Shown in pieces: positions 14,888 through 22,984 of a stretch of DNA of 64,000 bases (its first letter is position 1; each line of letters opens with the position of its first letter). Under the pieces are notes generated by a model. The model was given only the letters and a program-made list of their open reading frames with translations. It was not told the origin of the DNA and did not search any database. Source of the DNA: Alphaproteobacteria bacterium (GTDB lineage: Bacteria > Pseudomonadota > Alphaproteobacteria > UBA828); the NCBI GenBank assembly GCA_965248825.1, contig CBDFKL010000006.1, positions 705,255 to 769,254 of the forward strand, in the 5' to 3' direction. The position numbers were made by a program, and so were the translations under genes.

Positions 14888-16273
14888 TCAGGCGGCCTCC
14901 GGCACGCCGCAGCGCTCAAGCGCCGCGGCTTGACGATGCGCCAGCGCGGCCGCATCGAAGTCCGCAATCAGCGCCTCGTACAGCCGATGCCAATTGAGCT
15001 CGGCCTTGAGATGGAGGAAGACCGAGCCGAGCCCGATCGCCGAGCGGTTCATCAGGACGAATTCGCGCGGCGGTGTGACGCCGCCGAGGCGTCGGATTTC
15101 CCGGTGCGCCTTGGCGTGCATCGAGCCGCCGAAACGGCCGCTTCCCGATTCGTCGATCAGCCGGGTTCGATCGTCGATCAGCGGGCCGTAGATGTAGTCG
15201 GCCCAGATGCTGAGCGCGTCGATCATCTCGTTCGATAGCTCGCTGAAGCCCCAGGTCTCGAACGCGTGCACCGCGAGGGCGCGGTCCCCGCGCTGGACTG
15301 CATGGTAGAGGTCGATCACGCCGCCCACGAAGCCGGTCCCGAACACACGGATACAGCCATAATCAAGGAGATTGACCGTGCCGTCGGGACGGACGGTGTA
15401 GTTGCCGAGATGCGGATCGCCATGGAGCACGCCGTAGCGATAGAGCGGCACGTACCAGGCGTGGAACATGTGCCGCGCGATATCGTTGCGTCGCTCGGCC
15501 TGCGCCTCTTTGAATTCGAGCAGCGGGGCGCCGTCGAGCCAGCTCATGGTCAGCAAACGCCGGGTCGACAGGCTCGTCTCGACCGCCGGCAGGTGAATGC
15601 CCGGCGTATCCTTCAGGATCTCACCATAGAGATCCATATGGCGGGCCTCGCGCTCATAGTCGAGCTCCTCGCGCAGACGCGCCGCGATCTCGGCATGGAT
15701 TTCGCCGGTGTCGATCGCGCGGTCGTAACGCGCATAGATCGCGAAGATCACCTTGAGCTGCCGAATATCGGCTTCAACCGCCGAGGCCATGTCCGGATAT
15801 TGCAGCTTGCAGGCGAGGCGCGCGCCGTCGTGCCCGGTGGCGCGATGCACTTGGCCGAGGGATGCCGCCCCGGCCGCCTGCGCCTCGAAATCGGCGAAGG
15901 CATCGCGCCAATCGGGGCCCAGCTCGGCGGCCATCCGCCGCTTCACGAACCCCCAGCCCATCGAGGGCGCCAGCGCTTGAAGCGCGCCCAGGGCCTCGAC
16001 ATATTCATCCGGCAGACCGCCCGGAATGGTCGCGAGCAGCTGTGCAACCTTCATCAGCGGCCCCTTGAGACCGCCGAGCGCGCGCCCGAGATCGGCCGCA
16101 TTCCGCGCCCGGTCGGAGGGCAGGCCAAGATAGCGTTGGCCGGCCATGCGTGCGGCAACCCCGCCGACCGACCTGCCGACGCGCGCATACCGGCGAACCC
16201 GCCCGGTCAGTCTGTTGCTCTCCCGCTCCGACACGGATGGATGTCTCGCCGCCGCCTCAAGATGCGTGGCCAA
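14888..16273 (-). CDS. ABC1/UbiB-family atypical protein kinase (AarF domain)
   Basis: The ABC1 pattern is present: …ASLGQVHRA… with lysine and DYGC/HGDPHLGN catalytic motifs. The start codon is uncertain; there are several in-frame candidates. Confidence 0.8.
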   Translation of the reverse strand: MATHLEAAARHPSVSERESNRLTGRVRRYARVGRSVGGVAARMAGQRYLGLPSDRARNAADLGRALGGLKGPLMKVAQLLATIPGGLPDEYVEALGALQALAPSMGWGFVKRRMAAELGPDWRDAFADFEAQAAGAASLGQVHRATGHDGARLACKLQYPDMASAVEADIRQLKVIFAIYARYDRAIDTGEIHAEIAARLREELDYEREARHMDLYGEILKDTPGIHLPAVETSLSTRRLLTMSWLDGAPLLEFKEAQAERRNDIARHMFHAWYVPLYRYGVLHGDPHLGNYTVRPDGTVNLLDYGCIRVFGTGFVGGVIDLYHAVQRGDRALAVHAFETWGFSELSNEMIDALSIWADYIYGPLIDDRTRLIDESGSGRFGGSMHAKAHREIRRLGGVTPPREFVLMNRSAIGLGSVFLHLKAELNWHRLYEALIADFDAAALAHRQAAALERCGVPEAA

Positions 16274-16410
16274 GTCTAACAGCCGCGCGGATTGAAGAGG
16301 TGAGATAGTTGGCCCTTCATTGACAGGGCCGCCGAGCAGATCGCCGAATTGTGACTTGACCAGCCCACGCCGCCATGTGAAGTGCGGCGAGCCTCGGCCG
16401 AGGGAGTTCG

Positions 16411-17400
16411 ATGGCGCTTCCGTCTCACGCGATCCCGACCGGCTCGGCGCGCGCCTCGCCGGGAAAATTCGCCGACCCGCTGATCACGGCGGATGGACGG
16501 CCGCGGGCAGCCGTTCACCTGGCCGGGCTGCGTACGCTCTGGTTCAACACCGGGACGCTTTGCAATTTGGCTTGTGCGAACTGCTACATCGAATCGAGCC
16601 CCCGCAACGATCGGCTGGTCTATCTGACACCGGCCGACATTCGGCCCTATTTCGACGAGATGGCCCGGGACGGCTGGCCGACCGAGGAGATCGGCTTCAC
16701 CGGCGGCGAGCCGTTCATGAACCCGGACATCATCGCCCTGCTCGATGAGGCGCTCGATCGCGGCTTCCGCGCTCTGGTTCTGACCAACGCCATGCACCCG
16801 ATGATGAAGCGCGCCGACGCGCTCCAGCGGCTGCGCGGCCGCCATGGCCGCCGGCTCGCGATCCGCGTCTCGCTCGACCATTATACCGAGGCGCTGCATG
16901 CGCTCGAGCGTGGCGCGCGAAGCTGGGGACCGGCGATCGAAGGCCTCATCTGGCTCGCCCGGCACGGCTTCGAGCCTGCGGTCGCCGGCCGTACCCGCTG
17001 GGGCGAGGACGAGGCCAGCTTGCGCCGCGGCTACGCCGCCTTGTTTGAGCGGCTGGATATCGCCCTCGACGCCGAGGATCGGAAACGGCTGACACTGTTC
17101 CCGGAAATGGATGCAGACGCCGAGGTGCCGGAGATCACCGAGGCCTGCTGGAGCGTTCTCGGGGTGCGGCCGAGCGCGATGATGTGCGCGAGCTCCCGCA
17201 TGGTCGTGAAGCGCAAGGGCGATGACCACCCGGTGGTGCTCTCCTGCACCCTGCTGCCCTATGACGGCGCTTTCGAGATGGGTGCAAGCCTCGCCGACTC
17301 GACCGCCGAGGTGCGGCTCAACCATCCCCACTGTGCGCGCTTCTGCGTGCTCGGCGGCGGCACCTGCAGCGACGCGGAGGGCGCCGCCTCATTGGCGTGA
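16411..17400 (+). CDS. radical SAM enzyme with a C-terminal Cys-rich domain (ArsS-like 'radical SAM/Cys-rich' family)
   Basis: The CxxxCxxC motif CNLACANCY lies near the N-terminus. The GGEPF glycine-rich SAM motif is present. The C-terminal region is rich in Cys/His (CASS…SCTLLPYDG…HPHCARFCVLGGGTC). A GAGGGAG ribosome-binding site sits 4 nt before the ATG. No B12-binding domain is present. Confidence 0.75.
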   Translation: MALPSHAIPTGSARASPGKFADPLITADGRPRAAVHLAGLRTLWFNTGTLCNLACANCYIESSPRNDRLVYLTPADIRPYFDEMARDGWPTEEIGFTGGEPFMNPDIIALLDEALDRGFRALVLTNAMHPMMKRADALQRLRGRHGRRLAIRVSLDHYTEALHALERGARSWGPAIEGLIWLARHGFEPAVAGRTRWGEDEASLRRGYAALFERLDIALDAEDRKRLTLFPEMDADAEVPEITEACWSVLGVRPSAMMCASSRMVVKRKGDDHPVVLSCTLLPYDGAFEMGASLADSTAEVRLNHPHCARFCVLGGGTCSDAEGAASLA

Positions 17401-17423
17401 CGCGCCGGCATGGTGTCGACGGA

Positions 17424-18560
17424 TCAGCCGGCGAGGAACGCCCGGAAGCGCCGTGCGACGTCGCGGGGCGCGATCGTGGGGCGACCCAGCTTGGCGAGGG
17501 AGCCGGGCACGATCAGCGCATGGATCAGCGCCGGCTTGGGGCCGCCAGCGGCGGTTTCGAGAGCGCGGGCGAAGCCTGCCTCGCTGTCGCATCGATAGGC
17601 GCGCGGATAGCCGCAGGCCTGAGCGACCGTAGTGAATTCGACGTTGGGCGAGACGGTGGCTTGCCCGCCAGTCGAATCGTGCACGCCGTTGTCGAGCAGG
17701 ACATGGGTCAGATTGCCGGGCCCGTAGGCGCCAATCGTCGCCATGGCACCGAGCTTCATCAGCGCCGCCCCGTCGCCGTCCAAGACCACGACCGGACGCG
17801 CCGCGCTGAGCGCAATGCCGAGGCCCATGGCGGAAGCGCAACCCATGGAGCCCACCTGGTAGAGCTGTTGAGCGCGATCCTCCAGTGTGAAGAGTTCACG
17901 CCCGGTCTTGCCCGTGGTCGCGACCACGGCGGCGTTCGGTACGACGAGCTCCTGGAGCCGACGCAGGAGGTCGACCCGCGCCGGTCGGCCGCCGCCTTCC
18001 GTGAAATCTTCGATCCTCCCGCGCGGGTGGATCGGAGGGTCCGGCTGGTCGAGGCCGTCTTCGCGGACCGTGCCTTTTTCCATGACGAGAGCGAACGGCA
18101 GTTCCTCGGCTTCCATGACATGAACGGCTCGTTCGAGCGCTGCGGGTACGGCGTCGGCCTCCCTGGGGAAGCCGGCATGAGGGACCGCGATGACCTCGAG
18201 AAGCGATGACGTTACCCGGCCCATCAGCGCGTGCTGCGGCTCGTCCTCGAGCCCGGGCTGGCCCCGCCAGGTGACGATCATCAAGGTCGGAATGCCAAAC
18301 GGGTGGTTGAGCGAGGTCAGAGGGTTGACGGTGTTGCCGAGCCCGGAATTCTGACACATCACAACCGTGCGCCGGCCTGCGAGCCAAGCGCCCGCCGCGA
18401 TCGCGACCGCCTCGCCCTCGCTCGCCGCGCCGACATAGGTGAGCGCGGGATCGGAGATCACCCGATTGATCAGCGAGGTCAGGAAGGAGCAGGGAACGCC
18501 GGTGTAGAAGTCGAAGCCCCGAGCTCGGGCGGGCTCGAGAAAGGCATCGGCCGGGATCAT
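17424..18560 (-). CDS. ppd: phosphonopyruvate decarboxylase (fused alpha/beta TPP enzyme)
   Basis: The 378-aa ThDP enzyme has the GDG(X)…N motif (VLDGDGAALMKLGAMATIG…LDNG). Its N-terminus is sulfopyruvate/phosphonopyruvate-decarboxylase-like (FYTGVPCSFL). It lies directly downstream of a PEP mutase gene. Confidence 0.85.
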   Translation of the reverse strand: MIPADAFLEPARARGFDFYTGVPCSFLTSLINRVISDPALTYVGAASEGEAVAIAAGAWLAGRRTVVMCQNSGLGNTVNPLTSLNHPFGIPTLMIVTWRGQPGLEDEPQHALMGRVTSSLLEVIAVPHAGFPREADAVPAALERAVHVMEAEELPFALVMEKGTVREDGLDQPDPPIHPRGRIEDFTEGGGRPARVDLLRRLQELVVPNAAVVATTGKTGRELFTLEDRAQQLYQVGSMGCASAMGLGIALSAARPVVVLDGDGAALMKLGAMATIGAYGPGNLTHVLLDNGVHDSTGGQATVSPNVEFTTVAQACGYPRAYRCDSEAGFARALETAAGGPKPALIHALIVPGSLAKLGRPTIAPRDVARRFRAFLAG

Positions 18561-18592: not shown

Positions 18593-20260
18593 TTACACGA
18601 GGTTGCGCAGGTTGGCGAGGTCGAAGGCGTCGTCGACGTCGAGCCAGTGGCCGGTAATGTAGAGGACGTCGATGACCGTCCCTCGCGCGATGAGACGAGC
18701 GAACACATCGGGCAGGTCGGCGTCGTCGAGGGCGCCCTCCCCAGCCATCGCTTCGAGCTCGGCCCGGATCAACGCGGCGCCTTCCGCCCCCAGCTTGGTG
18801 AGACCGATGAACTCGCCGTCGGCCGCTGGCGCATCAGCCGCCTCGGTCCAGATCGCTTCGAGGGTCACGCGCTCATCGTCGAGATAGCTGCCCGTGAAAG
18901 GCCGCGAGCAGCGCACCCAGTCGATAGGCCGATCCGGCGCACGGGAATTGCCGGCGCGGACCCGTGCGTCGACCACCGTCACGATATCTCCATCCGCCGC
19001 GAGGAGGCCGTCGAGCACGTGCCGGCGGAACAGGATGTCGCCATAGGAGACCAGACATGGCCCATCGAGCCGATCGCCAGCGCAGGCGAGGGAGCCGGCT
19101 TCACCGGTCTCGCCATAGCGGTCATTGTCGACGACCTCGACATTGGCGAGGGCGAGCGCCTCCTTACGGTAGCCGCGCACCACGGTCACGTCACGCACGC
19201 CGCCCTCGTTCAACGTGCCGACCAGGCGCTGGATCAGCGGCTCGCCGCGCACGTCGATCATGCATTTCGGGCGCTGCGCCGTGAGTGGGCCAAGCTTCTC
19301 GCCACGCGAGGCCGCGAGCAGGATCGCACGGTGGTCGCGGCCGCCGGGCCCGAGATAGCGCGCCTCGGCCGCGGCGAGCTCCGCATGGCCCATCAGCTCG
19401 AAGACGTCCCGCACCGGCGTGATCTCTCCTTCAACGGCGGTGAGCGATTCGCCTTCCTTGATGCGCCGGCTGATCGAGCGCATCGCCGTGACCGCCGCCC
19501 GCATGTTGTGGTTGGCCCAAATCACGAGGGATACGCCCGCGTCGCGAAAGGCCTGTGTCGGCGTCCGATGGTACATGGTCGGCACGATCACCACCGGCGC
19601 GCGCGCGCGCCAGGCAGCGCAGAACCGCGTGATCTCCTCGGCGGTCTCCTTTTTCGAGTGGATCAGCACCGCGTCCGCACCGGCCTCGTGATAGGCTTCG
19701 GCTCGACGCAGCGCCTCATCCATACTCCAGCCGGCGATCAGCGCCTCGACGCGTGCCACGAGCTGGAAGTCACCGTCGCTCTGGCTGTCCTTACCCGCCT
19801 TGATGCGGCCGCAGAACTCGCCCACATCCGCGAGCGGCTGGTTTTCGCCGATGAACGAGTTGGTTTTCGGGAACAGCTTGTCCTCGATGCAGACGCCTGC
19901 GATCCCCCGTTGACAGAGCTTCTTCACCAGACGGCGCACATTGTTGAAGTTGCCGTAGCCGGTGTCGCCGTCGACCAGGATGGGGATATCGGTGGCATCG
20001 GCCATGAACTCGAGCATTTCGAGCACCTGAGTCCAGGAGGCCTCGTTGTTGTCGCGCACGCCAAGGGCGGCCGACATCGAGAGCCCCGAGGCCCAAATGC
20101 CTTCGAAGCCGGCCTCCTCCACAATCTTCGCGGAGAGCCCGTTGTGCGCCTCCATGATGAAGGAGAGCTCAGGCGAGCGCAGCAGCGCGCGCAGCAGCGC
20201 GGCCTTGGACGGCGCCTGCGCCCGCCCCCCGACGGGGCTGTTGGAAAGCCGCGTCGCCAT
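18593..20260 (-). CDS. pepM: phosphoenolpyruvate mutase fused to a C-terminal LicC-like nucleotidyltransferase (PepM-PntC-type fusion)
   Basis: The N-terminal ~300 aa carry the PEP-mutase signature [12 protein letters not shown] and [19 protein letters not shown]. The C-terminal ~250 aa form an NTP_transferase fold ([33 protein letters not shown]…HWLDVDD). Confidence 0.9.
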
Positions 20261-20620: not shown

Positions 20621-21763
20621 ATGCCACCGACCGATCACGACGCCATCCCATTCATCGACCTGCAGGCCCAATATCGCCGCCTCAAACGCGAGATCGATAC
20701 CGCGATCACACGGGTTCTGGAGGATGGCCGGTTCGTCATGGGGCCGGCGGTGGCCGAGCTGGAGGCGGCTCTCGCCGCGCGCATCGGAGGCGGGCACGCG
20801 GTCACCTGCGGGAGCGGCACCGATGCTCTCTTGATCCCGCTGATGGCCGCGGGCGTCGGTGCGGGAGATGCGATCTTCATCCCGAGCTTCACCTTTACGG
20901 CGACGGCGGAGGTCGCGGCGCTGCTCGGCGCGACGCCGATATTCGTCGACGTGAACGAAAGAACCTATCTGATCGATCCCGCCGATCTTGCGGCGCGGGT
21001 TTCTCGCGTCGTGGCGGAGGGTCGACTGCGGCCACGGGCGGTGATCGCCGTCGACCTGTTTGGGCAAGCGGCGGACTATGCCGCGCTCACGCCGATCACG
21101 GCGGAGTGGGAGATGCTGCTGATCGCGGACGCGGCGCAAAGCTTCGGCGGGGCGAGCGGCGGACGGCCGGTCGGCGCCCTGGCACCGGTCACCACGACCA
21201 GCTTTTACCCGGCGAAGCCGCTCGGCTGCTACGGCGAGGGCGGCGCACTCTTTACCGACGACGAGGCGCGGGCGGCCGGCTACCGCTCCATCCGCCAGCA
21301 TGGTCGGGGCAGCGGCCAATACGACACCGTCCGGATCGGCCTCAATAGCCGCCTTGATACCCTCCAGGCCGCCATTCTTCTTGCCAAGCTACCGGTCCTG
21401 GATGCCGAGATCGACGCGCGCGAGCGGGCCGCGGCGCTCTATGATTCCGCGCTCGCCGGGGTCGCCGGGCTGCCGGAGCGACTCTCCGCGCGCCGCTCGA
21501 CCTGGGCGCAATACACCATCCGCCTTGAGCAGCGCGACGCGGTCGCGATGCGGTTGAAGGCGCAAGGCATCCCAACCGCAATCCACTATCCGCTGCCGAT
21601 GCACCTGCAACCGGCCTACAGCGCCTATGGCGAGGGCCCGGGTTCGCTGCCTGTCAGCGAGCGCCTGAGCCGGCAGGTGCTGTGCCTGCCGATGCACGCG
21701 GACCTCGATGAAGCAACGATTGTGCGAATCGCCAGCGCCGTGCGCGATACGGCGACGGGTTGA
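20621..21763 (+). CDS. DegT/DnrJ/EryC1/StrS-family PLP-dependent aminotransferase
   Basis: The family pattern is present: FIDLQAQY…GSGTDALL…TTSFYPAKPLGCYGEGGA (PLP lysine region). It is transcribed divergently from pepM-ppd. Confidence 0.85.
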   Translation: MPPTDHDAIPFIDLQAQYRRLKREIDTAITRVLEDGRFVMGPAVAELEAALAARIGGGHAVTCGSGTDALLIPLMAAGVGAGDAIFIPSFTFTATAEVAALLGATPIFVDVNERTYLIDPADLAARVSRVVAEGRLRPRAVIAVDLFGQAADYAALTPITAEWEMLLIADAAQSFGGASGGRPVGALAPVTTTSFYPAKPLGCYGEGGALFTDDEARAAGYRSIRQHGRGSGQYDTVRIGLNSRLDTLQAAILLAKLPVLDAEIDARERAAALYDSALAGVAGLPERLSARRSTWAQYTIRLEQRDAVAMRLKAQGIPTAIHYPLPMHLQPAYSAYGEGPGSLPVSERLSRQVLCLPMHADLDEATIVRIASAVRDTATG

Positions 21764-21772
21764 ACCGCGCCC

Positions 21773-22984
21773 ATGGCTTCAGCTTCTGCACCCACCTCAC
21801 CAACCCGCTGGGACATCGTCCTGATGGCCCTCGGCGCCGGGATCCTCGCCGGGTTCCAGGTCGGCAAAGTACCGCCGGCCTTGCCGGTGCTGCGCGAAAC
21901 GCTAGGGCTCGACCTGGTCACGGCAGGCTGGCTCACCTCGATCTATTATGGGATCGGCGCCGTCGTCGCGGTCGCGGTGGGGCTGCTCTCCGATCGCGCG
22001 GGTCCACGGCGCCTGATGCTTGCAGGCGTGGCCTGCCTGGGCGCGGGCAGCCTGATGGGCGGGCTGGTGAACGACGGCGCGTGGCTGCTCGTCGCACGCT
22101 TCTTCGAGGGCTTCGGTTTCGTCGGGATCACGGTGACGGCGCCCAAGCTGATCGCCGTCGCGGCGCGGCCGCAGGACCACGGCCTCGCCTTCGGCATCTG
22201 GGGCGCCTATATGCCGATCGGCATGGCGATCGCCATGCTGGTCGCACCGGCGTCGCTCGATGCTCTCGGCTGGCGCGGCTTCTGGCTGGTCAGCGCCGCG
22301 CTTGTCGCGCTCTTCATGGCCGGGCTCGCGTGGAGCCTCCGGCTGCAACGCTGGCCGGTCAGGTTCGAAGCGCAGGCGCTCGACTGGCCCGGCGTGCGCG
22401 CGACTCTGGCGCGACCCGCGCTCTGGCTGTTCGGCCTCTGCTTCGCATTCTACACCTTGCAGTGGTTCGCCATCATGAGCTGGCTGCCGACCTTCCTGAT
22501 CGAGACCCAGGATCGGTCGGCCGCCGGTGCCGCCATCTGGGGCGCGGTGGTGGTGGGGATCAACGCGTTGGGCAATTTCGCCGCGGCTTGGCTGATGCAT
22601 CGGGGTGCGCCGCGCTGGGCGTTGATCGGCGTCGCCTTCTTGGTGATGGGCGGGACATCGGCCGGCATCTTCCTGTCTGGCACGCCCGGCGACCTCAAAA
22701 TCGTGCTCGCCTTCGCCTTCAGCGCCATCGGCGGCCTGCTGCCGGCGGCCGCGATCGCGGGCGCCGCCGCCCATGCGCCAACCGCCGCCTTCGTCGCGAT
22801 GGCGAGCGGCTTCGTCGTGCAGGGAGCGGCGCTCGGCAGTCTGTTCGGGCCGCCGGTGATGGCCATCGCGGTCGAAGGCCTCGGCGGCTGGGCCGCATCC
22901 TGGTGGCTGATGCTCGCCGTCTCGGCCGCCGGGCTCGGCCTCGTTACGGCGCTGGTTCCGGCGGAACGCAAGGCCAGCGGCTAA
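21773..22984 (+). CDS. MFS transporter
   Basis: It has 12 predicted TM helices and an MFS loop motif (LSDRAGPRRLM). Only 9 nt separate it from the DegT-family gene. Confidence 0.8.
   Translation: MASASAPTSPTRWDIVLMALGAGILAGFQVGKVPPALPVLRETLGLDLVTAGWLTSIYYGIGAVVAVAVGLLSDRAGPRRLMLAGVACLGAGSLMGGLVNDGAWLLVARFFEGFGFVGITVTAPKLIAVAARPQDHGLAFGIWGAYMPIGMAIAMLVAPASLDALGWRGFWLVSAALVALFMAGLAWSLRLQRWPVRFEAQALDWPGVRATLARPALWLFGLCFAFYTLQWFAIMSWLPTFLIETQDRSAAGAAIWGAVVVGINALGNFAAAWLMHRGAPRWALIGVAFLVMGGTSAGIFLSGTPGDLKIVLAFAFSAIGGLLPAAAIAGAAAHAPTAAFVAMASGFVVQGAALGSLFGPPVMAIAVEGLGGWAASWWLMLAVSAAGLGLVTALVPAERKASG

Follow-up and report, generated by a model that had tools for sequence, protein, structure and literature searches.

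A widespread, unnamed radical SAM family related to ArsS, with a member adjoining phosphonate genes in an alphaproteobacterium

ArsS is an enzyme of the radical S-adenosylmethionine (SAM) type which, according to another paper (PMC12159101), was reportedly found by Cheng et al. in 2021 to adenosylate dimethylarsenite. This adenosylation of dimethylarsenite (DMAs(III)) to DDMAA is redox-neutral (PMC13598754). In ArsL, which takes part in arsinothricin biosynthesis, activity depends on a Cys-rich tail to which arsenite binds (10.1101/2024.02.01.577332). We analyzed a radical SAM gene in a 64,000-nucleotide stretch of alphaproteobacterial DNA (hereafter the window; positions are counted from its first letter), in which this gene faces two phosphonate genes, ppd and pepM. 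The encoded protein belongs to an unnamed radical SAM family to which the ArsS and Rv1681 families are distant sisters. What is new here is that this sister family is widespread, with a C-terminal domain and a metallophosphoesterase partner of its own. Our best explanation, to which we give an even chance, is that the family is a functional analogue of ArsS in 5'-deoxyadenosyl transfer and that the gene in the window is an orphan that merely adjoins a phosphonate module.

On the + strand, an open reading frame (ORF) with an ATG start (16411–17400) specifies a protein of 329 amino acids (aa). This ORF is a genuine gene: an identical protein exists in a public collection, and the search for homologues gave more than 8000, of which the top 120 are 63–100% identical to it. 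A first-pass annotation made from the sequence had described a 329-aa ORF with a CxxxCxxC motif, a Cys-rich C-terminus and no cobalamin domain, and this description was confirmed by translation and Pfam analysis. Pfam detected Radical_SAM (aa 46–189, 63.7 bits) and Fer4_12 and nothing else in the protein. No B12-binding domain was found in the 329 aa, and the 139 residues of aa 191–329 gave zero Pfam matches even at E ≤ 10. The gene and its parts are as follows.

16411–17400, + strand: radical SAM gene, 329 aa (ORF and translation; PF04055, 63.7 bits), unnamed family, kin of ArsS and Rv1681
16546–16977, + strand: radical SAM core domain, aa 46–189 (Pfam, hhalign), the sole part alignable to ArsS
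16561–16584, + strand: CxxxCxxC motif in CNLACANCY (aa 51–59), C51, C55 and C58 being for the [4Fe-4S] cluster that cleaves SAM, unchanged in all of 160 family sequences
17074–17379, + strand: C-terminal domain, aa 222–323, outside all Pfam models, with conserved C246, C259, C279, C308, C312 and C319
17323–17367, + strand: Cys-rich tail motif HPHCARFCVLGGGTC, aa 305–319, resembling the ArsS tail HCYGCTAGQGSSC

The first-pass annotation had assigned this layout to the radical SAM + DUF3641 type exemplified by ArsS, and had named classification with hidden Markov models as a check. All 41 NCBIfam matches of the protein were far under their respective curated cutoffs. The best was the Rv1681 family NF049973, which covered aa 36–218 only and reached 90 bits where the cutoff is 380; a true member of NF049973 scores 536 bits. 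The second was the ArsS model TIGR04167, with 51.3 bits against 300, where aa 38–188 aligned with model positions 5–149. The same two families ranked at the top for the further family members that were scored. The twitch model NF033640 gave 39 bits against 170, the MoaA model gave 29.8 bits against 284, and QueE was absent among the NCBIfam matches. PF12345 (DUF3641) showed no match at E ≤ 10 in the whole protein or in aa 191–329, and it was found neither in 120 listed family homologues nor in 10 distant representatives. As a positive control, PF12345 matched 19 of 19 true ArsS sequences, with scores up to 177 bits. Membership in the ArsS/DUF3641, Rv1681, B12-dependent methylase, QueE/MoaA-type and named twitch/SPASM families thus failed with Pfam and NCBIfam.

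Using hhalign, we set the alignment of the family (A1) against one of ArsS (A2). The two profiles aligned with a probability of 97.5% (E 8e-12) over the core only, aa 35–220 of the target on aa 16–206 of ArsS. Between the C-terminal slices, the alignment was limited to the Cys tail (15 columns, E 0.044). The tail of the window protein, HCARFCVLGGGTC, resembles the ArsS-type tail HCxxC...G.GSSC, which is rich in Cys (or Sec). Most family members have CxxxC spacing in the tail, and CxxC, as in ArsS, was found in the distant members P0137 and P0232. Because TIGR04167 was below its cutoff, PF12345 was undetected and the profile alignment was confined to the core, the protein is placed outside the radical SAM + DUF3641 family. 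The ArsS-like reading therefore stood in part: ArsS and Rv1681 are the nearest named relatives, and clusters of the ArsS type accompany the family elsewhere, but membership in TIGR04167/DUF3641 did not hold. Nor did the protein classify into a housekeeping radical SAM family. Literature searches on DUF2064, DUF3641 and Rv1681/moeX turned up no functional information.

The family is present in at least 596 species-representative genomes, and 416 representative clusters (50% identity) score below 1e-30 with it. Alphaproteobacteria are its main hosts, and it extends to some Gammaproteobacteria, Latescibacterota, SAR324 and Gemmatimonadota, with 57–87% identity to the window protein across the family. 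Each of the nine Cys of the window protein is kept in 159–160 of 160 aligned sequences. A plasmid member with 62% identity is labeled merely "radical SAM protein" by the Prokaryotic Genome Annotation Pipeline. The AlphaFold2 model had a predicted local distance difference test (pLDDT) score of 79 and a predicted template modeling (pTM) score of 0.81. Foldseek with this model against the PDB retrieved BlsE, DesII, SuiB, MoaA, SkfB and anSME, all with a TM score of approximately 0.5. A PDB sequence search with the family profile gave core matches only (YydG, BlsE and MoaA, E approximately 1e-5). Neither search found a close solved structure, and the neighbors were generic twitch/SPASM-type enzymes. 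The family was therefore placed on the twitch/SPASM-type branch, a model-based placement that is consistent with an auxiliary cluster without proving one.

Two metagenome sequences were rejected. P0125, an apparent fusion of the radical SAM protein with HD_3, had a corrupted tail (NHPYCAPVLRAGRRC...) and is most likely a frameshift joining two neighboring genes. The N-terminal 200 aa of P0127 resembled a non-coding translation and were discarded as junk. An unannotated homologue with 34% identity in Marinobacter adhaerens pHP-187 (L088, 7001–7871) consists of two ORFs and is probably a pseudogene.

The genes around family members were examined in 160 independent loci (80 from genomes and 80 from metagenomes, 57–68% identity to the window protein). 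A YfcE-like metallophosphoesterase with a GNCEE...CGCGF motif accompanied the family gene in 24 of these loci, either fused upstream or located downstream on the same strand at a distance of 15–71 bp. The fused ORFs lie in L010, L026, L049 and L063, and fusion proteins of the same kind are P0122, P0123, P0143 and P0150. A search for the metallophosphoesterase in plasmids gave generic YfcE-like matches only. TIGR04282 is fused to the radical SAM protein in P0124 and P0213. An accessory set, namely one or more of TIGR04282, TIGR04283 and S-methyl-5'-thioadenosine phosphorylase (MTAP, TIGR01694), was located beside the family gene in 25 of the 160 loci. The metallophosphoesterase or the accessory set was present in 48 of the 160, and in 38 of the 98 loci of at least 9 kb, a frequency of approximately 30–40%. 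TIGR04282 neighbors or fusions scored 163.6 and 141 bits (cutoff 134), and an MTAP neighbor scored 288 bits (cutoff 275).

Two genuine arsS loci were used for comparison. On a Burkholderia glumae plasmid, arsS is accompanied by MTAP, TIGR04283, TIGR04282, a flavin adenine dinucleotide (FAD) oxidoreductase and a TVP38/FAD oxidoreductase. A Thiodictyon plasmid carries a GT2 gene, a sterol desaturase gene, arsS and a TIGR04282 gene. Homologues of the B. glumae genes occur beside the family gene at 10 loci for MTAP, 21 for TIGR04283, 18 for TIGR04282 and 9 for the TVP38/FAD oxidoreductase. No TIGR04167-type gene, that is, no second arsS, was found in any family locus examined. The shared accessory set and the lack of a TIGR04167-type gene therefore indicate that the family fills the place of ArsS in clusters of the ArsS type.

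The fullest version of the cluster is a one-strand operon on plasmid p546-1 of Roseomonas haemaphysalidis (L089, 3034–9994). Its order is TIGR04282, DUF547, a 459-aa radical SAM protein, the family radical SAM protein, PhnD, PhnE, an ATP-binding cassette (ABC) ATPase and the metallophosphoesterase. The 459-aa protein is weakly TrsS-like (100 bits against 490). In no other locus do both types of partner occur together with an ABC transporter of the phosphonate type, and PhnD-like genes were present in 1 of 168 family loci. On a Mycolicibacterium vanbaalenii plasmid (L090, 3946–9804), a true Rv1681-family radical SAM gene (536 bits) overlaps a gene for a PhnD/SsuA-like binding protein. Nearby are genes for a 527-aa radical SAM protein, an ArsM-like methyltransferase (N-terminal KSCCAAMY), CcdA and thiol-disulfide proteins, which hints at metalloid chemistry for the Rv1681 family too.

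The accessory genes shared in other genomes, the core homology and the similar Cys tail could also be explained if the family were truly orthologous to ArsS, though divergent, and synthesized arsenosugars by acting on dimethylarsenite. We consider this improbable. The ArsS model failed by a wide score difference and PF12345 was lacking, as described above; the loci read showed neither arsM nor any other ars gene beside family members; and the dedicated metallophosphoesterase was seen in neither of the two arsS loci read.

We therefore favor a functional analogue of ArsS, for which the following mechanism is proposed. The family enzyme, like ArsS, would cleave SAM reductively, and the 5'-deoxyadenosyl radical would be transferred onto a heteroatom-centered substrate, for which a trivalent arsenical or another soft nucleophile of that kind is the most plausible candidate. 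By comparison with the ArsL tail, the thiol triad C308/C312/C319 would probably hold the substrate, and an auxiliary Fe-S cluster may be bound by C246/C259/C279. In genomes with the partner genes, MTAP would remove adenine from the adenosyl adduct by phosphorolysis, and the CofC-like TIGR04282 and the GT2 protein TIGR04283 would activate and transfer the resulting 5-deoxy-5-X-ribose. For the adenosyl-transfer mechanism itself, drawn by analogy with ArsS, we put the likelihood at a little below even.

Several observations weigh against an analogue of ArsS. The C-terminal domain is without detectable homology to DUF3641, and the AlphaFold2 model is weak in the tail, with pLDDT below 50 for aa 312–329. 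The TIGR04283-like GT2 neighbors are just under the cutoff (169 bits against 182), and approximately 60% of the family loci are without an informative partner. Within the 64-kb window, no metallophosphoesterase, TIGR04282, TIGR04283 or MTAP gene was found. TIGR04282 and TIGR04283 owe their "arsenosugar" names to inference from context as well. MTAP could merely recycle 5'-deoxyadenosine formed as a by-product of a conventional H-abstracting enzyme, and the very high conservation across aerobic Alphaproteobacteria could fit a housekeeping role equally well.

These last points lead to the alternative that the family abstracts H as conventional radical SAM enzymes do and has a housekeeping role in the modification of a cofactor, RNA or protein or in the metabolism of another compound. 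MTAP would then only dispose of 5'-deoxyadenosine, and the likeness to ArsS clusters would be coincidental or reflect a shared downstream sugar pathway. This would agree with the 57–87% identity across orders, the 103 positions that are at least 95% conserved and the lack of partner genes in the window. The fold neighbors BlsE, DesII, MoaA and anSME are H-abstracting enzymes of the twitch/SPASM type, and most family loci lie in housekeeping synteny with metZ, apaG, folE and trkH. Genes for metZ, apaG (DUF525), folE and trkH follow the family gene on the same strand in 14–18 of 82 loci (L003–L082; e.g., L086, 6136–10095). We judged them to be conserved housekeeping synteny rather than partners; a link to folE (GTP cyclohydrolase I) is possible. 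Against a housekeeping enzyme, every housekeeping equivalog model was far from its cutoff, and a small-molecule pathway is suggested by the TIGR04282 fusions and by those with a dedicated metallophosphoesterase. The ArsS accessory set also recurs in full around the family gene, which stands where arsS would. We regard H-abstraction in a housekeeping role as unlikely, although it is the main rival.

We then considered the genes that adjoin the radical SAM gene in the window, which are listed below.

14888–16273, − strand: ABC1/UbiB-like kinase gene, divergent from the radical SAM gene and part of the rpsU-pntB-pntA-ABC1 flank (PF03109, 179 bits)
17401–17423, no strand: 23-bp spacer between the convergent radical SAM and ppd stops (sequence), inside a stem-loop at 17396–17440
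17424–18560, − strand: phosphonopyruvate decarboxylase (Ppd) gene, convergent on the radical SAM gene (TIGR03297, 422 bits against 312.5)
18593–20260, − strand: gene for phosphoenolpyruvate (PEP) mutase fused to a MobA-like nucleotidyltransferase (TIGR02320, 392 bits against 319.6; PF13714, PF12804)

The 23-bp distance between the two stops, noted in the first-pass annotation, was confirmed. The stem-loop at 17396–17440 is modest (dG −23.3 kcal/mol, z −2.0) and is without a U-run, and no consensus terminator was found at the spacer. Genes for a DegT-type aminotransferase (20621–21763, + strand) and a major facilitator superfamily (MFS) transporter (21773–22984, + strand) are divergent from the pepM-ppd genes. 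Together, the PEP mutase-MobA fusion, Ppd, DegT and MFS proteins look like a small nucleotide-activated phosphonate module of the 2-aminoethylphosphonate type.

The first-pass annotation had raised the possibility that the radical SAM enzyme adenosylates or otherwise tailors a phosphonate or phosphinate that the neighboring pepM-ppd genes produce, and had named conservation of the adjacency as a check. The order rpsU-pntB-pntA-ABC1 / rSAM> <ppd <pepM was kept in every readable relative with at least 79% identity (P0002, 87%; P0004, 81%; P0005, 80%; P0003, 79%). The loci with ppd/pepM adjacent were L001, L083–85, L174 and L175 only (79–87% identity; five lineages), and the left flank rpsU-pntBA-ABC1 is common to them. 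The gene past pepM varies, being DegT/MFS/gltBD in the window and an IS110 fragment, polA or an N6_N4 DNA methylase in relatives, which suggests a two-gene pepM-ppd core. In relatives at 70–71% identity, the neighbors were unrelated, and neither Ppd nor PepM was found within 6–8 kb of the family gene in any of the 160 independent loci.

A functional link to phosphonate chemistry could be read from the order kept in five lineages while the gene past pepM varies, from the PhnD/PhnE/ABC transporter genes in one operon with the Roseomonas family member, and from the PhnD/SsuA-like gene overlapped by the Rv1681-family relative. The remaining evidence makes such a link very improbable. In the close clade, the left and right flanks are equally conserved, so the order is accounted for by common descent. 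The radical SAM and ppd genes cannot share a transcript because they are convergent. Among the 103 positions that are at least 95% conserved in 159 other sequences, zero were changed in the three ppd-adjacent sequences compared (the window protein, L174 and L175); therefore, there is no sign of a new function in the ppd-adjacent clade. The absence of Ppd and PepM from the independent loci and the rarity of PhnD-like genes (1/168) point the same way, and PhnD-type binding proteins bind other tetrahedral oxyanions too.

The first-pass annotation had taken an adjacency conserved in no relative at all as refuting. Strictly, this was not the case: the adjacency was conserved among close relatives, but shallowly and without extending to independent loci, and the proposed connection with C-P chemistry was not upheld. 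The fallback of the first-pass annotation, that the genes are simply adjacent, is the best-supported reading: the adjacency is a gene order inherited in one narrow clade and not a functional link. The radical SAM gene is, with high probability, functionally independent of pepM and ppd. For phosphonate biology, this is a useful negative result: the pepM-ppd cluster should be counted without this gene.

A related idea is ArsS-type adenosyl transfer onto reduced phosphorus (phosphite, hypophosphite or an H-phosphinate), which would form a C-P bond independently of PEP mutase, and in which the metallophosphoesterase partner would process a phosphorus-containing product. It draws on three weak coincidences: the ppd-pepM adjacency of the clade with at least 79% identity, the PhnD/PhnE/ABC genes in Roseomonas and the PhnD-like protein with the Rv1681 relative. 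PhnD-like genes accompany just one of the 168 family loci. We consider this idea extremely improbable.

Other observations concern the flanks. In the 87%-identical relative, a DUF3047 gene lies between ABC1 and the radical SAM gene (L001, 5205–5906); the window is without this gene, and the intergenic region there (16274–16410) is just 137 bp. In the more distant loci L026, L115, L132 and L160, an ABC1/UbiB-like kinase 66% identical to that of the window also lies near the family gene, but downstream of it and convergent, and L026 and L132 also have a metallophosphoesterase upstream of the radical SAM gene (fused in L026). The association with ABC1 may be older than that with ppd. To see whether ppd might be tied to arsenic, we considered the bisenarsan pathway, in which a Ppd homologue acts on arsonopyruvate (PMC12159101), and dropped it because PepM and Ppd of the window pass curated phosphonate models and because bisenarsan uses a phosphoglycerate-mutase homologue, not PepM.

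If the family is an ArsS analogue, ArsS would not be the sole radical SAM scaffold in "arsenosugar-type" clusters, and a second widespread family, which annotation pipelines name only "radical SAM protein", would perform the equivalent step. The known capacity of soil and aquatic Alphaproteobacteria for the metabolism of organo-arsenic, or of other heteroatom-adenosyl compounds, would also be widened. The family is a defined biochemical target: an enzyme of approximately 320 aa with nine invariant Cys, natural fusions and candidate substrates.

Finally, we compared the window protein with the known systems. Fom3 and PhpK belong to the radical SAM superfamily and, like the window protein, are encoded next to phosphonate genes. 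However, they are cobalamin-dependent methylases, whereas the window protein has no B12 domain, its gene is not co-oriented with the phosphonate genes, and its family is not pepM-associated elsewhere. ArsL cleaves the other C-S bond of SAM, giving an ACP (3-amino-3-carboxypropyl) radical. It shares with the window protein a radical SAM domain and a C-terminal Cys-rich tail, but its tail is RCCLKC and it belongs to a different subfamily, outside the top NCBIfam matches. Among named families, the Rv1681 (MoeX) family NF049973, whose proteins are similar in size, gave the highest score; a plasmid member is accompanied by a PhnD-like binding protein, a second large radical SAM protein and an ArsM-like methyltransferase. 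Unlike the window protein, the Rv1681 member that was read has no Cys-rich tail and ends in a single terminal Cys.

ArsS and the family are both approximately 320 aa in length, with CxxxCxxC near the N-terminus after a leader of approximately 30–50 aa, a homologous core and a C-terminal tail of three Cys with a Gly-rich spacer (HC-x2/3-C-x6/7-C). In other genomes, the two also share MTAP, TIGR04283, TIGR04282 and TVP38/FAD oxidoreductase neighbors. The family differs in that identity to ArsS is approximately 25–30% in the core only, the DUF3641 domain is missing and the tail is usually spaced CxxxC, whereas that of ArsS is CxxC. It also differs from ArsS in having its own metallophosphoesterase partner or fusion and in occurring mainly in Alphaproteobacteria. 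From the gene context and the core homology, we judge that the window protein works most like ArsS.

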